From Acetobacteraceae bacterium (GTDB lineage Bacteria; Pseudomonadota; Alphaproteobacteria; Acetobacterales; Acetobacteraceae), in NCBI GenBank assembly GCA_947371015.1, contig CANBNK010000012.1, positions 989 to 64,988 on the forward strand: a stretch of 64,000 nt of DNA, written 5' to 3'. Shown piece by piece: positions 4,507-42,717 of this stretch (position 1 is its first letter; each line of letters starts with the position of its first letter). The notes beneath the pieces were generated by a model, which saw nothing but the letters and a program-made list of their open reading frames with translations, made no database searches and was not told the DNA's origin. A program made the position numbers and the translations under genes.

Positions 4507-5484
4507 ATGCAACGACGCACCCTTCTGGCCGGGATCGCCTTGCCGCTGGCCGCGCCTGTCGCCGCCCGCGCCCAGGCGAGCGGGCAGCGCTTCCCCGACC
4601 ACCCCATCCGCATCATCTCGCCCTATCCGCCCGGCGGCGGCACCGACACGTCCGCCCGGCTGATGGCGCCGCACCTGACCGAGTTCCTCGGCCAGCCCAT
4701 CGTCATCGAGAACCGCGGCGGCGCCGCCGGTGCCCTTGGCGCCGCCGTGGTCGCGGAAACCCCACCCGACGGCTACACCCTGCTGGTTGACAGCCTCGGC
4801 CATGTGGTCAACCCGCATATCCTGAAGAACCTGCGCTTCGACTACGCCACCGCCTTCGCGCCGGTCTCCCTGCTGGTGGTGCTGCCGCAATTCCTGGTCA
4901 TCCCAGCCAGCATCCCCGCCAATACCGTCGCCGAGTTCCTCGCCTGGTGCCGCGCCCGGCCGGGGCAGCTTTCCTACGGCTCGTCGGGCAACGGCACCGG
5001 CGCGCACCTGGCCGCGCTGCTCTTCGTGCGGGAGGCGGGGCTGGACCTGACCCACGTGCCCTATCGCGGCGGCAGCGCCGTGATCCCCGACCTGGTCGCC
5101 GGCAATGTCAGCTTCGCCTTCGCCACCGTCAGCACCAGCATGGCGCTGATCCAGGATGGCCGGCTGAAGGCCCTGGCCGTGACCTACAAGGACCGCCTGC
5201 CCAGCATGCCCAACGTGCCGACCACGCGCGAGCTCGGCATGCCCCGGGTGGACGTGGACGAGTGGAATGCGATGTACGCCCGCGGCGGCACGCCCGCGCC
5301 GATCCTGGCCCGGCTGCACGCCGCCGCCGCGCATGCGCTCGCACAGCCCAACGTGCAGCAGCGCTTCACCCAGCTGGGCGGCCTGATCGTCAACAGCAGC
5401 ATGGCGGAAGCCGCCGCCTTCGTGGCCGAACGCCGCGAAGCCATGGGCCGGCTGGTACGCGAAGCGCAGGTGGTGGTGGAATGA
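4507..5484 (+). CDS. Bug/TctC-family tripartite tricarboxylate transporter substrate-binding protein
   Basis: Signal peptide followed by the hallmark [19 protein letters not shown]. 325 aa. Confidence 0.9.
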
Positions 5485-5554
5485 CGACCCCGAGCGCTTG
5501 CACGCCCCGCCTATTCATCTCATATGTAATCAATCATATCCAGGGAGCCTCGCC

Positions 5555-6871
5555 ATGAACGTCGCGCTGTCGCCCAGCCTGGTGCAGGGCACCGAAGCCG
5601 GCTTGCTCTCCGGCTTCGGCAATGAATTCGCCACCGAGGCCCTGCCCGGCGCGCTGCCGCTGGGCGCCAACAGCCCGCAGCGTGTGCCCTACGGCCTCTA
5701 TGCCGAACAGCTCAGCGGTACCGCCTTCACCGTGCCGCGCACCGAAGCCCGCCGCACCTGGATGTATCGCATCCGCCCCAGCGCCGGCCACGGCGCCTTC
5801 CGCCGCATCGACAACGGCGCGCTCTGCGGCCCGCTGGCCCCGCACAACCCCAACCGCCTGCGCTGGAACCCGCTGCCGCTGCCGAGCACGCCCACCGACT
5901 TCATCGCCGGCCTGACCACCCTGGGCCTGACCGGCGCGCCGGACGCGCCACACGGCATCAGCGTCCACCTCTACGCCGCCAACCAATCCATGCAGCGCGT
6001 CTTCATGGACGCGGACGGCGAACTGCTGATCGTCCCGCAACTCGGCCGCCTGCTGGTCGCCACCGAATGCGGCCGGCTGGAAGTCCGCCCCGGCGAACTC
6101 CTCGTCATCCCCTGCGGCATGAAGTTCCGCGTGGAGCTGCCGGATGGCGAAGCGCGCGGCTACATCGCGGAAAACCACGGCGCCGCCTTCCGCCTGCCGG
6201 ACCTCGGCCCCATCGGCGCCAACGGCTTGGCCAATCCGCGCGACTTCCTCAGCCCGGTCGCTTGGTACGAGGACCGCGACGAAGCCACAGAGCTGGTGCA
6301 GAAATACCAGGGCGCGCTCTGGGCCACCACGCTGGCCTGGTCACCGCTGGATGTCGTCGCCTGGCACGGCAACAACGCACCCTACAAATACGACATGGCC
6401 CGCTTCATGGCCATCAACACGGTCAGCTTCGACCACCCTGACCCCAGCATCTTCACCGTGCTGACCAGCCCGACCGACACCGCCGGCCTGGCCAACATGG
6501 ACTTCGTTATTTTCCCGCCGCGCTGGCTGGTGGCGGAAAACACGTTCCGCCCGCCCTGGTTCCACCGCAACACCATGAACGAGTGCATGGGCCTGGTGCA
6601 CGGCGTCTATGACGGCAAGGCGGAAGGCTTCCTCCCCGGCGGCGTCTCGCTCCACCCGCGGATGAGCGCACACGGCCCCGACGCCCCCACCACGCAGCGC
6701 GCCATCGCAGCAGACCTGAAGCCGCACAAGCTGGAAGGCACACTGGCCTTCATGTTCGAGACCTCGGGCGTGCTGCGCCCCACCGAAGCTTTCATGAGTG
6801 GCCCCCACCTGCAATCCAACTATGACGCCGCCTGGGCGGGACTGCCAAAAACCTTCACCGGAGCACGCTGA
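5555..6871 (+). CDS. hmgA: homogentisate 1,2-dioxygenase
   Basis: [44 protein letters not shown] and WFHRNTMNE are diagnostic HmgA sequence. ATG 5555 is preceded by CAGGGAG. Confidence 0.95.
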
Positions 6872-6875
6872 GACC

Positions 6876-8162
6876 ATGAGCCTCGACGCCACGCACGACC
6901 CCAAGCTGAAGAGCTGGGTCACCTCGGCCAATGGCCATGCCGAATTCCCCATCCAGAACCTGCCGCTCGGCGTGTTCTCGGTGAAGGACGGGCCGAAGCG
7001 TGGCGGCGTCGCCATCGGCGACCGCATCCTGCCGCTGGCGGAAGCGGTGCCGCACCTGAAGGGCGCAGCGAAGAAGGCCGCCAAGGCCGGTGCCGGCGCC
7101 ACGCTGAACGCGCTGTTCGCGATGGGGCCGGGGGCGCGCCAGGCGCTGCGCACCGGCCTCTCAGCGTTGCTGGCCAAGGGCAGCGAAGCCCGGCCGGATC
7201 TGGTGAAGCTGAAGGACGCCACGCTGCATATGCCCGCGAGCATCGGCGACTACACGGACTTCTTCGCCGGCATCAACCACGCCACCAATGCCGGCAAGCA
7301 GTTCCGCCCCGACACGCCCTTGCTGCCCAACTACAAGCACGTCCCCGTCGCCTATCACGGCCGGGCCAGCAGCATCCGCCCCAGCGGCACCCCGGTGCTG
7401 CGCCCCAACGGCCAGCGCAAGCCGGCCAGCGAGCCGGAGCCCAGCGTCGGCCCCAGCCGCAACCTGGACTACGAAATGGAGTTCGGCGTCTGGATCGGCA
7501 GCGGCAATGCGCAGGGCGAGCCCATCGCCATCGCCGACGCGGCCAACCACATCGCCGGCTACTGCCTGCTGAACGACTGGTCCGCGCGCGACATCCAGGG
7601 CTGGGAAGCCCAGCCGCTCGGCCCCTTCCTGGCCAAGAATTTCTGCACGTCCATCTCCCCCTGGGTGGTCACGCCGGAAGCGCTCGCCCCGTTCCGCGCC
7701 GCCCAGCCGCCGCGCCCGGAGGGCGACCCGCAGCCCTTCCCCTATTTGTGGGACGAGGCCGACCAGGCCGCCGGCGCGCTCGACTGCGAACTGGAAGTGC
7801 TGCTGCTGACGCCGGCGATGAAGAAGGCCAAGGAAAAGCCCACGCGCCTGTCGCTGGCCAACACCACGCACCTGTACTGGACCTTCGCCCAGATGGTCGC
7901 GCACCACACCGTCGGCGGCTGCAACCTCAACCCCGGCGACCTGTTCGGCAGTGGCACCATCAGCAGCACCACCGAGGACGGCTTCGGCGCCCTGCTGGAA
8001 ATAACCCAGGGCGGCCGCAAGCCCATCACCCTGCCGAACGGCGAAACGCGCCGCTTCCTGGAAGACGGCGACGAGATCATTTTTCGCGCCCGCTGCACGC
8101 GCGAAGGCGCCGCCCCCATCGGCTTCGGCGAATGCCGCGGCGTGATCCTGCCGGCACGATGA
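6876..8162 (+). CDS. fahA: fumarylacetoacetase
   Basis: An N-terminal FAH_N-like region (FPIQNLPLGVF) and a C-terminal FAH fold (DYEMEFGVWIG, GDLFGSGTIS). The gene begins 5 nt after the hmgA stop. Confidence 0.9.
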   Translation: MSLDATHDPKLKSWVTSANGHAEFPIQNLPLGVFSVKDGPKRGGVAIGDRILPLAEAVPHLKGAAKKAAKAGAGATLNALFAMGPGARQALRTGLSALLAKGSEARPDLVKLKDATLHMPASIGDYTDFFAGINHATNAGKQFRPDTPLLPNYKHVPVAYHGRASSIRPSGTPVLRPNGQRKPASEPEPSVGPSRNLDYEMEFGVWIGSGNAQGEPIAIADAANHIAGYCLLNDWSARDIQGWEAQPLGPFLAKNFCTSISPWVVTPEALAPFRAAQPPRPEGDPQPFPYLWDEADQAAGALDCELEVLLLTPAMKKAKEKPTRLSLANTTHLYWTFAQMVAHHTVGGCNLNPGDLFGSGTISSTTEDGFGALLEITQGGRKPITLPNGETRRFLEDGDEIIFRARCTREGAAPIGFGECRGVILPAR

Positions 8163-39468: not shown

Positions 39469-40455
39469 ATGTCTGCACCGGCGTCCAAGCCCACCCTCCT
39501 CATCACCCGCCGTCTGCCTGCCGCCGTCCAGGCCCGCGCGAGCCGCGACTACGACGCCCAGCTCAACCAGCCCGACGACCTCTGGGCGCTGGACGCCGCC
39601 GAGATCGCCCGCCGCGCCACCGCCAGCAACGCCAGCGCCATCCTCTGCGCCGCCGGCGACGCCATGAACGCCGCCTGCATCGCCGCCCTGCCGGCAAGCG
39701 TGAAGCTGATCGCCACCTTCAGCGTCGGCACCGACCACATCGATCTCGCGGCGGCGCGCGCAAAAAACATCCCCGTCGCCAACACGCCGGATGTCCTCAG
39801 CTTCGCCACCGCCGAGATCGCCTTCACCCTCATGCTCATGGCCGCCCGCCGCGCCGGGGAGGGCGAGCGCCTGCTCCGCGCCGGCAACTGGGGCGGCTGG
39901 GCGCCGACGCAGCTGATGGGCGTGACGCTGGAAGGCAAGAAGCTCGGCATCCTCGGCATGGGCCGCATCGGCCGCGAACTGGCCAAGATGGCGCGCGGCT
40001 TCAGCATGGAAGTCCACTACCGCAACCGCTCGCGCCTTTCCGCCAGCGAGGAAGCCGGCGCGACCTTCCACGCCGAGGATTCCAGCTTCCTGGCCGGGAT
40101 CGACGTGCTGAGCATGCACATCCCCGGCGGCGCGGCGACGCGCCACTGGCTGAACGCGGAACGGCTCGGCCTGCTGAAGCGCGGCGCCATCGTGGTCAAC
40201 ACCGGTCGCGGCACCACGGTGGACGACGCGGCGCTGGTGGCGGCGCTGCAGTCCGGCCAGGTGCTGGCCGCCGGCCTGGACGTGTACGACGGCGAACCGC
40301 GCGTCTTCCCGGGCTACCTGGGCCTGGAGAACGTGGCCCTGCTGCCGCATCTGGGCAGCGGCGCGGTGGAGACGCGGGACGCGATGGGGTTCCGCGCGTT
40401 GGATAGCGTGGATGCGGTGGTGTTGCGGGGGGAAGTGGCGCCTTGGGGGGTTTAA
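39469..40455 (+). CDS. D-isomer-specific 2-hydroxyacid dehydrogenase (glyoxylate/hydroxypyruvate reductase-like)
   Basis: NAD motif GILGMGRIGRELA, catalytic region VNTGRG...D and HLGSG. 328 aa. Confidence 0.9.
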   Translation: MSAPASKPTLLITRRLPAAVQARASRDYDAQLNQPDDLWALDAAEIARRATASNASAILCAAGDAMNAACIAALPASVKLIATFSVGTDHIDLAAARAKNIPVANTPDVLSFATAEIAFTLMLMAARRAGEGERLLRAGNWGGWAPTQLMGVTLEGKKLGILGMGRIGRELAKMARGFSMEVHYRNRSRLSASEEAGATFHAEDSSFLAGIDVLSMHIPGGAATRHWLNAERLGLLKRGAIVVNTGRGTTVDDAALVAALQSGQVLAAGLDVYDGEPRVFPGYLGLENVALLPHLGSGAVETRDAMGFRALDSVDAVVLRGEVAPWGV

Positions 40456-40578
40456 ACCGCCGTTCTTGACACCCAGCTAACGTCAGAAGGCTGGAGCGCA
40501 ACAATGACGATATTCGAGTTAGTTAAGAACACGCTTGATATATTGTATGCGGAAGCGAAGTCTTAGTATCAGGACGAC

Positions 40579-41352
40579 GTGGACAACAAGATCAGGGAGA
40601 GGCTGATCTACCTGTCGCAGAGTTATCGGGAACTCGCCTCCCCTGGAAGGGCGACGGTAGATTACGCTGATCCGGCGACTCGATTTGCCTACGTCTATAG
40701 CTATGTAGCGGCCCACGGCGATTATATTGTTCAAATTCTTGATGCAAACGATAATTTAGGGTTGTTTGACAACAAGCAGGTCCGCGTATCCTGCATTGGC
40801 GGCGGTCCAGGCAGTGATCTTATTGGGATTTTGAAGTATATTTCTGATCGAAATTTGGGCGTCGAGAAAATTATCGCATATCTTCTCGATGGCGAGCAGT
40901 CGTGGTCTGATACTTGGACTGAACTTGGCGAGCAGTTCAAGTTACCAGTGCCCACCAATGTGAATTTCCAACGCATGGACGTAAGTGATCCTTCGTCTTG
41001 GAGAGGGCAAAAGAATTTTCTGAAAGCAAATTTGTTTACGCTCAGCTATTTTGTTTCAGAAATATATAGCCTGGGAGAAGATGCTGTTAGCTTTTGGACA
41101 AAAGTATTTGACAGTGCATTGCCGGGCGCCATTTTTCTTTATGTCGACAACGGCTCCCAGGAGTTTAATGACTATTTTGACGGCCTATGGAACTCGAGGC
41201 CAGATATTGAGTTGATATCCGGAATGAAGAACAAACGTTACACTCCGAGCTATACTGAGCAAGCTAGTCATTTGCAGGAATATAAGCAGAAATTCGATAG
41301 GAATGCGAAAATACAGTCAGTTTTGACTTGGCGAATATTACGCAAAAAGTAA
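40579..41352 (+). CDS. class I SAM-dependent methyltransferase-like protein (substrate unknown)
   Basis: 257 aa. GTG start, with an in-frame TAG 15 nt upstream and AGGA 4 nt upstream. Motif I-like VRVSCIGGGPGSDLIG, an acidic end to strand 2 (AYLLDGE), FQRMDVSDP, LFTLSYFVSE and GAIFLYVDNG. No DPPY/NPPY and no PCQ/ENV motifs, so it is not a canonical restriction-modification DNA methylase. The family assignment rests on motifs only. Confidence 0.6.
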   Translation: MDNKIRERLIYLSQSYRELASPGRATVDYADPATRFAYVYSYVAAHGDYIVQILDANDNLGLFDNKQVRVSCIGGGPGSDLIGILKYISDRNLGVEKIIAYLLDGEQSWSDTWTELGEQFKLPVPTNVNFQRMDVSDPSSWRGQKNFLKANLFTLSYFVSEIYSLGEDAVSFWTKVFDSALPGAIFLYVDNGSQEFNDYFDGLWNSRPDIELISGMKNKRYTPSYTEQASHLQEYKQKFDRNAKIQSVLTWRILRKK

Positions 41353-41362
41353 GGAGGCGTAA

Positions 41363-41974
41363 ATGGATCTGTTCAACGACGATGGCGTGCTTCGGCAGCT
41401 TCCCGTTCCAGGCGCCGATGTGAAATATGCACGTAGTCCAGCATTAGGGTTTGATAGCAAAATTTTGTTGTCTGATCTGATTTCTACGACTCCCTGGCGC
41501 CAGGAAAAAGTTACTGTTTGGGGAAAATCGTTCGATCAACCCAGATTGGTTGCTTGGTATGGAGACCCGGGACAAGTTTATACCTATTCGGGCATTAAGC
41601 TTGATCCCTTAGCTTGGACGGATCAGTTAAAATTTGTAAAAAATGCGGTGGAAAGCTTTGTGGGGTTTGGTTTTAACAGCCTCCTACTTAATTTTTATCG
41701 AGATAATCAAGACAGTATGGGTTTTCATAGTGATAACGAAAGAGAGCTTGGGCATGATCCTGTAATCGCATCGCTAAGTCTTGGTGCGGAGCGAAATTTA
41801 GTATTTAAGAAAAGAGGACAAAAAACAAATGAATCTTTCAGAATAAAGTTGGAGCATGGAAGCTTGTTGCTTATGGGGTCGGGGACTCAGAAGAATTACC
41901 TTCACGGTATTAATAAGTCCCGACTTCTTATGGGCCCTCGTGTGAACCTGACATTCCGTCGCATTATCGGCTGA
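41363..41974 (+). CDS. alkB: AlkB-family Fe(II)/2-oxoglutarate-dependent dioxygenase (oxidative nucleic-acid demethylase type)
   Basis: 203 aa. RLVAWYGD...YTYSG, LLLNFYRDNQDSMGFHSDNE (HxD), NYLHGI (second His) and RVNLTFRR (Rx5R) match AlkB/ALKBH2-3-type proteins. A strong SD (AAGGAGG, 41351-41357) overlaps the methyltransferase stop codon. Confidence 0.85.
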   Translation: MDLFNDDGVLRQLPVPGADVKYARSPALGFDSKILLSDLISTTPWRQEKVTVWGKSFDQPRLVAWYGDPGQVYTYSGIKLDPLAWTDQLKFVKNAVESFVGFGFNSLLLNFYRDNQDSMGFHSDNERELGHDPVIASLSLGAERNLVFKKRGQKTNESFRIKLEHGSLLLMGSGTQKNYLHGINKSRLLMGPRVNLTFRRIIG

Positions 41975-42063
41975 GTAATCCGCGCTCAAGCCAGTTTTTC
42001 TTGCGCATTCCCAAAGTTCTCTATATGTTCCCCATACCCCCCACCCCTCCGGCCACCCCTCCC

Positions 42064-42717
42064 ATGACCCCCAACCAAGCCGCCGCCCGCCCGCACTGGT
42101 CCACCCTCCCGGCCTTCAACCCGGCCAATCTCCGCCGCCCCGGCCTTACCAACCCGCGCCCCTGGGAACTCCTCTCGGACGAGGAGCTTCGCGCCCTCTG
42201 GCCCTACTTCGTCCACAAGGGCAGCGGCCGCCCCATCTTCGATATCCGCGCCAGGCTCGACGCCATCTTCTGGGTCGCCTGCCATGACGGCCCCTGGAAG
42301 AACCTGCCGCCGGACATGGGCCCCTGGGCCACCGCGCATCGCCAATTCCGCCGCTGGGTCCACAAGGGCACCTGGGCGGAGCTATTAAAAGCCGTCGCGC
42401 TGAAGACCTGCCCGCCGGTGCTGCGTCGCCTGACCCATTGGCTCTGCCGCGCCTGGCGCCGCGCCACCCGTATCGTCGGCACCTACGCCATCCGCCTCGC
42501 CCGCCGCCTCGGCCTGCTTTCGGCGCTGAAAGGCCCGCACTGGATGCTGCCCGACCCGGATTTGTCCGATACGTTACTGCCCATCGTCCAGCAGCGGGTC
42601 ATGGAGTGGCTCGCCGCCCGGAAATACCACGACACCTCGGTCCTCAAGGCCGCCCGCAGCTTCCATTTCCTGGTCGGCGGCCGGCGCTACGTCCCCGCCT
42701 GCCTCGCCCCGCCATGA
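42064..42717 (+). CDS. DUF4096-domain protein (IS5-family transposase OrfA/N-terminal-like; no DDE domain)
   Basis: LSDEELRALWPYF....GRPIFDIRARLDAIFWVACHDGPWKNLPPDMGPWATAHRQFRRWVHKGTWAELL follows the LSD.EW..I.P....GRP..D.R..L.AI.W....G..WR.LP...GPW.T....F.RW...G.W pattern of IS5/IS427-group OrfA. The C-terminal ~110 aa are unrelated to DDE transposases. The gene is high-GC like the host. The start is uncertain (TTG 42001, ATG 42025, ATG 42064). Confidence 0.6.
   Translation: MTPNQAAARPHWSTLPAFNPANLRRPGLTNPRPWELLSDEELRALWPYFVHKGSGRPIFDIRARLDAIFWVACHDGPWKNLPPDMGPWATAHRQFRRWVHKGTWAELLKAVALKTCPPVLRRLTHWLCRAWRRATRIVGTYAIRLARRLGLLSALKGPHWMLPDPDLSDTLLPIVQQRVMEWLAARKYHDTSVLKAARSFHFLVGGRRYVPACLAPP

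Follow-up and report, generated by a model that had tools for sequence, protein, structure and literature searches.

Why does a gene for an AlkB-type demethylase lie directly behind one for a putative methyltransferase, on a short AT-rich islet within an otherwise G+C-rich genome? The islet in question is a 1.54-kb segment of contig CANBNK010000012.1 from an Acetobacteraceae bacterium (assembly GCA_947371015.1); the whole stretch of 64,000 nucleotides that was analysed is referred to here as the window, and positions are counted from its first letter. The first of its two genes resembles those for class I S-adenosylmethionine (SAM) methyltransferases (hereafter MT) and the second encodes an AlkB-family Fe(II)/2-oxoglutarate (2OG) dioxygenase. 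Enzymes of the AlkB family take methyl groups off N1 of purines and N3 of pyrimidines in single-stranded DNA and RNA, and classical bacterial alkB genes are either solitary or part of the ada regulon. An earlier, sequence-only reading of the window took the pair to be one coupled unit and could name no described bacterial system of this architecture.

The answer we arrive at has two parts. The islet is a cassette of two genes that arrived by horizontal transfer, and cassettes of this kind are widespread and, in the literature we found, not described before. As to what such cassettes do, their gene content and distribution lead us to read them, with a probability of roughly one half, as a mobile writer–eraser module of the toxin–antidote, abortive-infection or defence type, of which the window appears to hold a decayed copy.

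The pairing is conserved across bacteria

A pattern scan that took one genome for each species collected homologues of the MT at 71 genomic loci, from the Alpha-, Beta- and Gammaproteobacteria, Cyanobacteria, Acidobacteria, Planctomycetes, Myxococcota, Chloroflexi, Actinomycetota and other groups. An alkB gene is adjacent in 54 of these, in arrangements that vary with lineage: in Proteobacteria it lies 9–23 nt downstream of the MT gene and on the same strand, as in the window, in Acidobacteria it lies 71–105 nt downstream, and in Cyanobacteria the two genes are divergently transcribed. The position directly downstream is taken by a gene of the DUF1848 family in 15 of the 17 loci that lack AlkB, and AlkB and DUF1848 are never found together. 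One or other eraser-type partner is present in 69 of the 71 loci, in at least eight phyla and three gene arrangements. The two remaining loci have neither, one of them being cut by the end of its contig. The other, the single complete MT locus without AlkB or DUF1848 (L040, 1410–3262), adjoins small ORFs (open reading frames) that by eye resemble a HicA-type toxin and a DUF104-type antitoxin.

The MT–AlkB pairing is real and general, and the coupled unit that had been seen at a single locus reappears as an adjacency conserved across many phyla. Neither ORF clustering over the 71 loci nor a tally of Pfam and PADLOC matches in 259 flanking proteins revealed a third conserved gene. The literature on AlkB, 2OG dioxygenases, defence systems and toxin–antitoxin modules yielded no published account of an MT–AlkB or MT–DUF1848 module, in keeping with what the sequence-only reading had said of the pair. 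Two measures of co-inheritance, both of them confounded by species phylogeny and locus sampling, point the same way: the nearest neighbour of an AlkB protein shares its MT-link label in 109 of 117 cases, a figure reached in none of 2000 permutations, and the pairwise identities of MT and AlkB are correlated (r = 0.85 over 49 loci).

Dependence between the partners is one-way. The 80 closest metagenomic relatives of the window AlkB (49–57% identity) include 63 with enough upstream sequence to be assessed; an MT gene lies upstream in only 17 of these, and the relatives without one have no common partner gene. The MT is almost never found without an eraser-type enzyme, whereas AlkB is often alone. 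One AlkB relative (54% identity; L079, 4001–6623, and L080, 44–2666) has no MT upstream and is followed after 10 nt by the gene for a 661-residue helicase of the PIF1/AAA_30 type, an arrangement that recalls the partnership of human ALKBH3 with the helicase ASCC3.

The frequent solitude of close AlkB relatives is what would be expected if there were no functional link at all and an ordinary alkB repair gene simply travelled beside an unrelated hypothetical gene. Such an explanation has, however, to accommodate the retention of AlkB or DUF1848 in 69 of 71 MT loci from at least eight phyla, despite unrelated flanking genes and in three arrangements, as well as the correlated divergence of MT and AlkB, and we find it hardly credible.

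An uncharacterised methyltransferase family

On the evidence of its predicted fold, the MT is a class I SAM methyltransferase, belonging to an uncharacterised family of ~287-residue proteins. The AlphaFold model (pLDDT, the predicted local distance difference test, 90) has alternating strands and helices and matches 320 methyltransferase structures in the PDB at E ≤ 1e-3 (Foldseek). Among solved structures the nearest to it is METTL17/Rsm22 as bound to the mitochondrial small subunit, with a template-modelling (TM) score of 0.57, which is too low for substrate assignment; the Foldseek searches against PDB and viral structures returned generic class I methyltransferases only. The translation contains the motifs earlier picked out by eye (VSCIGGGPGSD, FQRMDVSDP and IFLYVDNG), and with them the invariant C-x-GGGPGSD of the family, the glycine-rich SAM loop.

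The only Pfam match of the 257-residue window protein is to PF11312, at 22.9 bits, under the 26-bit cut-off. Some homologues lie just above that cut-off (P0002 at 29.0 bits, P0298 at 27.8 bits) and others score 17–20 bits; most of 401 homologues carry a precomputed PF11312 label, and some are named ‘RSM22 (predicted rRNA methylase)’ by JGI. Yeast Bmt6, a member of the PF11312 family, makes m3U2843 (a 3-methyluridine) in 25S rRNA, a Watson–Crick-face methylation (PMC5307852, PMC3950682), and the link to Bmt6 is a weak hint that the MT might perform N3-pyrimidine chemistry. Bmt6, Rsm22/METTL17 and the MT have the class I Rossmann fold in common, and PF11312 and METTL17 are the nearest matches of the MT; the match to Bmt6 is nonetheless borderline, and the bacterial family is distinguished from it by conserved N-terminal helices and motifs of its own.

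Other searches were less informative. Solved structures searched by sequence, with either the single protein or a 64-sequence profile, gave chance matches only, NCBIfam and PADLOC gave none and PHROGs nothing of use. No DNA methylase model (N6/N4 of the DPPY type, C5 of the PCQ/ENV type) in Pfam, NCBIfam or PADLOC matches the MT, and the DPPY/NPPY and PCQ/ENV motifs are absent from its sequence, in agreement with the initial view that this is not a restriction-modification DNA methylase.

The family is sizeable, with ~1100 clusters at 50% identity, and nearly all its members are single-domain proteins of 280–290 residues. A different architecture is seen in L081 (614–3985), where an AAA/SMC-type ATPase, a TIR domain, a Ser/Thr protein kinase and, at the C-terminus, an MT domain make up one protein of 1123 residues; there is no AlkB within the 1.1 kb downstream of this fusion on its short contig. 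Members of the family are acidic (median isoelectric point, pI, 5.2; net charge about -8) and their AlkB partners basic (median pI 9.0).

This acidity would be in keeping with an MT that acts on a small molecule, making or activating a methylating or electrophilic metabolite (in the manner of an SN2 methyl donor) whose collateral damage (of the 1-methyladenine or 3-methylcytosine type, m1A or m3C) AlkB or DUF1848 then repairs in the producer. The MT lacks motif IV of the nucleic-acid amino-methyltransferases, and many of its fold matches, NNMT, the caffeine-type synthases and PNMT among them, are small-molecule N- or O-methyltransferases. These matches are generic, however (TM 0.45–0.5), and a check of whether the MT joins any characterised small-molecule or protein methyltransferase family found none in Pfam, NCBIfam or the solved-structure searches. 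Moreover, the cassette has two genes only, with no biosynthetic or export genes conserved around it in the 71 loci. We therefore regard a small-molecule substrate as distinctly unlikely.

Two alternative partners

The AlkB of the window is a bona fide member of its family. It scores 109.9 bits against PF13532 (cut-off 31.2 bits), and its best relatives in the PDB are human ALKBH3 (E 1.6e-33) and ALKBH2 (E 2e-30), with no ALKBH8 among them. The iron-binding triad (H122, D124 and H181) and the arginines that bind 2-oxoglutarate (R193 and R199) are invariant in 21 homologues, so that the complete catalytic set (HxD, a distal His and Rx5R) read from the sequence at the outset is in place. What sets the cassette alkB apart from AlkB, ALKBH2 and ALKBH3, along with a distinct sub-cluster of its relatives, is that it is joined to an MT gene on mobile AT-rich DNA.

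Among the catalogued anti-phage systems of PADLOC-DB 2.0, the MT has no match and AlkB matches only the 2OG half of the CARF_2OG model (E 3e-37); there is no CARF domain in the window AlkB. From this match it would follow that AlkB-like domains of this subgroup also occur fused to CARF sensors, in candidate CRISPR-associated proteins.

The alternative partner is a full-length DUF1848 protein (PF08902, E 2e-89). To our knowledge, DUF1848 has no known function, but the family is large (over 4400 matches) and highly conserved, and one database record calls a member ‘DNA repair photolyase’. At the C-terminus is an invariant CPHGCxYC, a CxxxCxxC motif over which there is a faint match to a radical-SAM model. 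The predicted structure (pLDDT 82) is built around a beta/alpha core. At low root-mean-square deviation (rmsd) the radical-SAM domain of Elp3 matches it best (TM 0.39, rmsd 3.5 Å), the fold search giving no statistically strong match. We also considered whether DUF1848 might be a spore-photoproduct-lyase-like enzyme, an idea that found no support, the fold search returning weak Elp3-type radical-SAM matches only. A DUF1848 protein is also associated with the UG25 defence-associated reverse transcriptases, which have an N-terminal methylase domain (bioRxiv 10.1101/2021.12.02.470933). A clean division of the two partners between aerobes (AlkB) and anaerobes (DUF1848) was not adopted: DUF1848 is found in Anaerolineales, Desulfobulbaceae and Aminicenantes, yet Gemmataceae and Polyangiaceae carry it as well.

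The identity of the partners bears on a further possibility raised by the sequence-only reading, a split version of ALKBH8. In ALKBH8, a Trm9-like methyltransferase and an AlkB domain are fused and act on the tRNA wobble uridine. In a sequential pathway of this kind, AlkB would hydroxylate the methyl group added by the MT, leaving a stable hydroxymethyl or further-modified base. ALKBH8 provides a precedent for cooperation between methyltransferase and AlkB domains, and the tight coupling of MT and AlkB on one transcript could be understood in the same way. The likeness goes little further, however. The cassette MT matches PF11312 only and is not Trm9-like, its AlkB has the repair enzymes ALKBH3 and ALKBH2 as nearest relatives, there is no RNA recognition motif (RRM) domain, and the genes are separate, mobile and sporadic. 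Close AlkB relatives are mostly solitary, AlkB stays intact when the MT decays (see below), and the exchange of AlkB elsewhere for an unrelated, radical-SAM-like enzyme fits a shared outcome, namely removal, better than one particular hydroxylation. A pathway of the ALKBH8 type is in our view very unlikely.

Mobility, neighbours and gene decay

At every one of the 71 loci the cassette has a higher A+T content than the flanking DNA, the mean difference being 11 points. The flanks themselves are unrelated between loci and include integrases, resolvases, type I restriction-modification genes, MADS, BrxL, STAND NTPases and PD-T4-6-like kinases, each in a few loci. A survey of the flanks found recurrent kinases in eight loci, and in some Burkholderiales and Alphaproteobacteria the genes for a Ser/Thr kinase, MT and AlkB form tight operons: in L001 (2993–5927) the kinase gene directly precedes the pair, all three genes sharing one strand and the junctions being of 2 nt or overlapping, and L010 and L012 are similar. 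This suggests a three-gene variant of the cassette. Giant kinase-containing proteins flank the Microcoleus copies of the MT (L032, L039, L044 and L048).

Copies on phages and plasmids are few. Comparison with viral sequences gave two matches in IMG/VR and none in GenBank phages, and the plasmid search found two distant MT relatives only. On plasmid6 of Calothrix brevissima (L162, AP018213.1), a mobilizable plasmid of 36 kb, an MT relative of 27% identity is followed by an annotated 2OG-Fe(II) oxygenase gene (4842–6589), the pair being flanked by a relaxase gene and a P4-family primase gene.

Many copies of the MT gene are disrupted. In those loci where both genes could be judged, both are intact in 57, the MT is disrupted and AlkB intact in nine (including the window), the reverse is seen in one and both are disrupted in one. 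The stops and frameshifts lie at differing positions from one disrupted MT locus to another. This suggests that the MT is the partner that decays, although the asymmetry of nine to one is marginal (p ~0.04 by our own binomial estimate, gene length allowed for) and the counts rest partly on metagenome-assembled genomes (MAGs). In L071 (4367–6595) an insert of ~1.3 kb interrupts the MT gene (in the alignment, between residue ~91 and residues 83–167), the AlkB downstream being intact.

These features bear on the possibility that the pair carries out a proofread RNA modification of a housekeeping or regulatory kind, the MT marking one specific position in rRNA or tRNA and AlkB reversing the mark or cleaning up off-target methylation, with no toxin role. 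The borderline match to PF11312, the METTL17/Rsm22 structure as closest solved fold and the JGI label on some members would all be in keeping with this, and a protein of such acidity might bind to a ribonucleoprotein in place of naked nucleic acid. Against this, the cassette is sporadic in distribution and AT-richer than its surroundings at every locus, its variable flanks hold mobile-element and defence genes, the MT is often pseudogenised and in one protein the MT domain is joined to TIR, kinase and ATPase domains. These are the traits of accessory conflict genes, unlike those of core RNA-modification enzymes, and we consider a housekeeping role unlikely, if less so than the small-molecule and ALKBH8-like alternatives.

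The copy in the window

The composition of the islet is plainly foreign. A sliding profile (300-nt windows) gives a G+C fraction of 0.70–0.73 up to ~40450, 0.39–0.48 from ~40500 to 42000 and 0.68–0.70 from 42000 onwards. The sequence-only reading had placed the break and the recovery near 42000 correctly but had put the islet at 38–40% G+C; the average is about 45% and only the lowest 300-nt window reaches 38.7%. A calculation over the whole window (69.2% G+C) confirms the break: the islet is the lowest-G+C stretch of 1.54 kb in the 64 kb, lying ~6.7 standard deviations under the mean of 1.54-kb windows, and there is no second such dip. G+C content at third codon positions (GC3) is 0.50 in the MT gene and 0.41 in alkB, against 0.93 in the neighbouring 2-hydroxyacid dehydrogenase gene. 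By composition both islet genes are foreign, as had been supposed from the start. The coordinates of these and other features are collected in Table 1.

Table 1. Features of the islet and its surroundings in the window, and loci in which DUF1848 replaces AlkB
Feature	Position	Strand	Basis and remarks
AT-rich islet	40456..41995	.	44.9% G+C; contains the two-gene cassette only
Original start of the MT gene: ATG and 19 codons (MTIFELVKNTLDILYAEAKS), then in-frame TAG at 40564–40566	40504..40566	+	Translation, homologue alignment
Remaining MT ORF, 257 aa from GTG; class I SAM fold, without the conserved N-terminal helix	40579..41352	+	Translation, homologues, model
Shine–Dalgarno sequence of alkB, AAGGAGG	41351..41357	+	Overlaps the TAA stop of the MT gene
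AlkB-family Fe(II)/2-oxoglutarate dioxygenase, 203 aa, ALKBH2/3-like	41363..41974	+	PF13532, E 2.4e-31; intact
Host 2-hydroxyacid dehydrogenase gene (called gene, 328 aa)	39469..40455	+	PF02826, E 4.5e-49; high GC3 (see text)
High-G+C ORF with IS5-family transposase N-terminal domain (DUF4096)	42001..42717	+	PF13340, E 4.9e-17
DUF1848 in the AlkB slot	L026, L029, L034, L035, L038, L042, L045 (about 6750–7750 in most)		15 MT loci in all
DUF1848 in the AlkB slot, remaining loci	L054, L056, L058, L060, L063, L064, L068, L070 (about 6750–7750 in most)		

The layout is as first described: the two ORFs lie on the same strand, 10 nt apart, with the ribosome-binding site of alkB overlapping the stop codon of the MT gene. 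The MT gene itself is a different matter. Its homologues are ~287 residues long and begin with a near-invariant N-terminal helix (MTIFELVK..LD.LY in the alignment). The window encodes the same N-terminus in frame from an ATG at 40504, with GGAG 9 nt 5' of it, but codon 21, at which the aligned homologues have Glu, is a TAG stop. What the sequence-only reading took for a 257-residue gene is thus the truncated remnant of a longer one.

The identical TAG-bearing sequence is found in four independent assemblies of the locus (L072–L075: three sequencing runs and one MAG), and it is therefore a real allele and no assembly error. All other family-invariant residues of the MT are kept in the window copy; the lesion is therefore probably recent. 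Programmed read-through of the TAG was rejected, as other disrupted copies stop at different codons (21, 65, 133, 160 and 241) and most copies have no stop. The simplest reading of the sequence is that the window MT is probably a young pseudogene; at best, re-initiation at the GTG, which has AGGA 4 nt 5' of it, gives an N-terminally truncated product that lacks the conserved helix. The MT–AlkB pair in this window is probably not functional as a pair, and the locus is best described as a decaying cassette in which AlkB is the one clearly intact gene, an AlkB that may persist as a repair enzyme.

The left border of the islet coincides with the stop codon of the 2-hydroxyacid dehydrogenase gene (40455). 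No notable direct or inverted repeats flank the islet, and on the plus strand no consensus sigma-70 promoter or intrinsic terminator was found. On its other side, the IS5-like ORF scores 57.5 bits against the NCBIfam model transpos_IS5_3, under the 110-bit cut-off, and profile searches detected no DDE catalytic domain in it; gene callers place its start at 42064 (the called gene in L073). It may be an insertion sequence remnant tied to the islet's arrival. These two genes being the neighbours, alkB does not lie beside ada at the window locus, and no ada-like family is among the commonest neighbour families of the 71 MT loci.

A candidate writer–eraser module

Since the MT has one or the other of two unrelated enzymes as an obligate companion, we infer that both partners act on its product. 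In the reading that we prefer, the MT would be the writer, placing on RNA or single-stranded DNA a methyl group of the sort that AlkB enzymes can remove, at N3 of a pyrimidine or N1 of a purine. Such a methylation would block base pairing, and an eraser co-expressed with the MT would hold the damage in check. That eraser would be an ALKBH2/3-like AlkB in most lineages and the radical-SAM-like DUF1848 in others. In the window copy, the writer would be dead or crippled and AlkB left to serve in routine repair.

Conserved pairing, mobility, asymmetry and gene decay are matters of observation, and the points that we count in favour of a writer–eraser module are these four together with co-inheritance, the fusion to TIR, kinase and ATPase domains, the kinase operons and the hints of chemistry. 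A toxin–antidote or defence role was already among the proposals of the sequence-only reading, and comparative evidence of this kind now speaks for it. Traits expected of toxin–antitoxin genes are likewise present: a bicistronic pair, an eraser-type partner in 69/71 loci, greater AT-richness in 71/71 and an MT beside only 17/63 of the assessable AlkB relatives. On the other side of the balance, almost no copies of the cassette are found on phage or viral contigs, defence genes adjoin only a minority of MT loci and the MT is without a PADLOC match. Its match to PF11312 in the window falls below the Pfam cut-off, and its fold matches, METTL17/Rsm22 apart, are of a generic kind, with NNMT and other small-molecule N-methyltransferases among them. 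A pI of 5.2 is atypical for enzymes that bind naked nucleic acid. To these must be added the confounding of the AlkB clustering and identity correlation, and the marginal and partly MAG-based decay counts, noted above.

A more specific version can be formulated, in which the cassettes form a new toxin–antidote or anti-phage class: the MT would install pairing-blocking lesions of the m3C, m1A or m3U/m3T (3-methyluridine/3-methylthymine) type in RNA or single-stranded DNA, AlkB would reverse them and DUF1848, where it replaces AlkB, would be an oxygen-independent radical-SAM demethylase. We put this forward tentatively, as a possibility that may well prove wrong. We know of no radical-SAM nucleic-acid demethylase analogous to AlkB.

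Of the known systems, DarT/DarG is one of the closest. Both it and the cassette are mobile and sporadic two-gene cassettes with the writer first and the eraser second, and in both (for the cassette, as proposed) a group that blocks replication or translation is put on nucleic-acid bases and removed by the partner enzyme. The chemistry differs, with ADP-ribosylation and macrodomain hydrolysis in DarTG and SAM-dependent methylation with oxidative or radical removal proposed for the cassette, and there is no relationship of sequence or fold between DarT/DarG and the MT cassette. The toxicity and defence role of DarTG have been shown; those of the cassette are proposed. Restriction-modification systems offer another comparison: they too are mobile cassettes with a SAM methyltransferase, and in the MT cassette also one partner (the MT) is almost never without the other. 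The cassette, however, has no nuclease, its MT matches no DNA-methylase family and its partner would remove methyl groups rather than read them.

Implications

For this genome the message is a modest one: the islet is best seen as a decayed copy of the cassette in which AlkB alone is clearly intact. For the family as a whole, the consequences would be wider. If the writer–eraser reading is true, bacteria use AlkB-reversible enzymatic base methylation as a weapon or an addiction mechanism, and methylation damage would join the short list of reversible nucleic-acid modifications in conflict systems, beside the ADP-ribosylation of DarTG. It would also give a testable function to three uncharacterised families, namely the ~287-residue MT, the MT-linked AlkB subgroup and DUF1848, and would provide a rationale for the AlkB-like domains found in immune systems, CARF-2OG of type III CRISPR loci being an example. 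Finally, it could account for the foreign composition of the ALKBH2/3-like AlkBs present in many bacteria.

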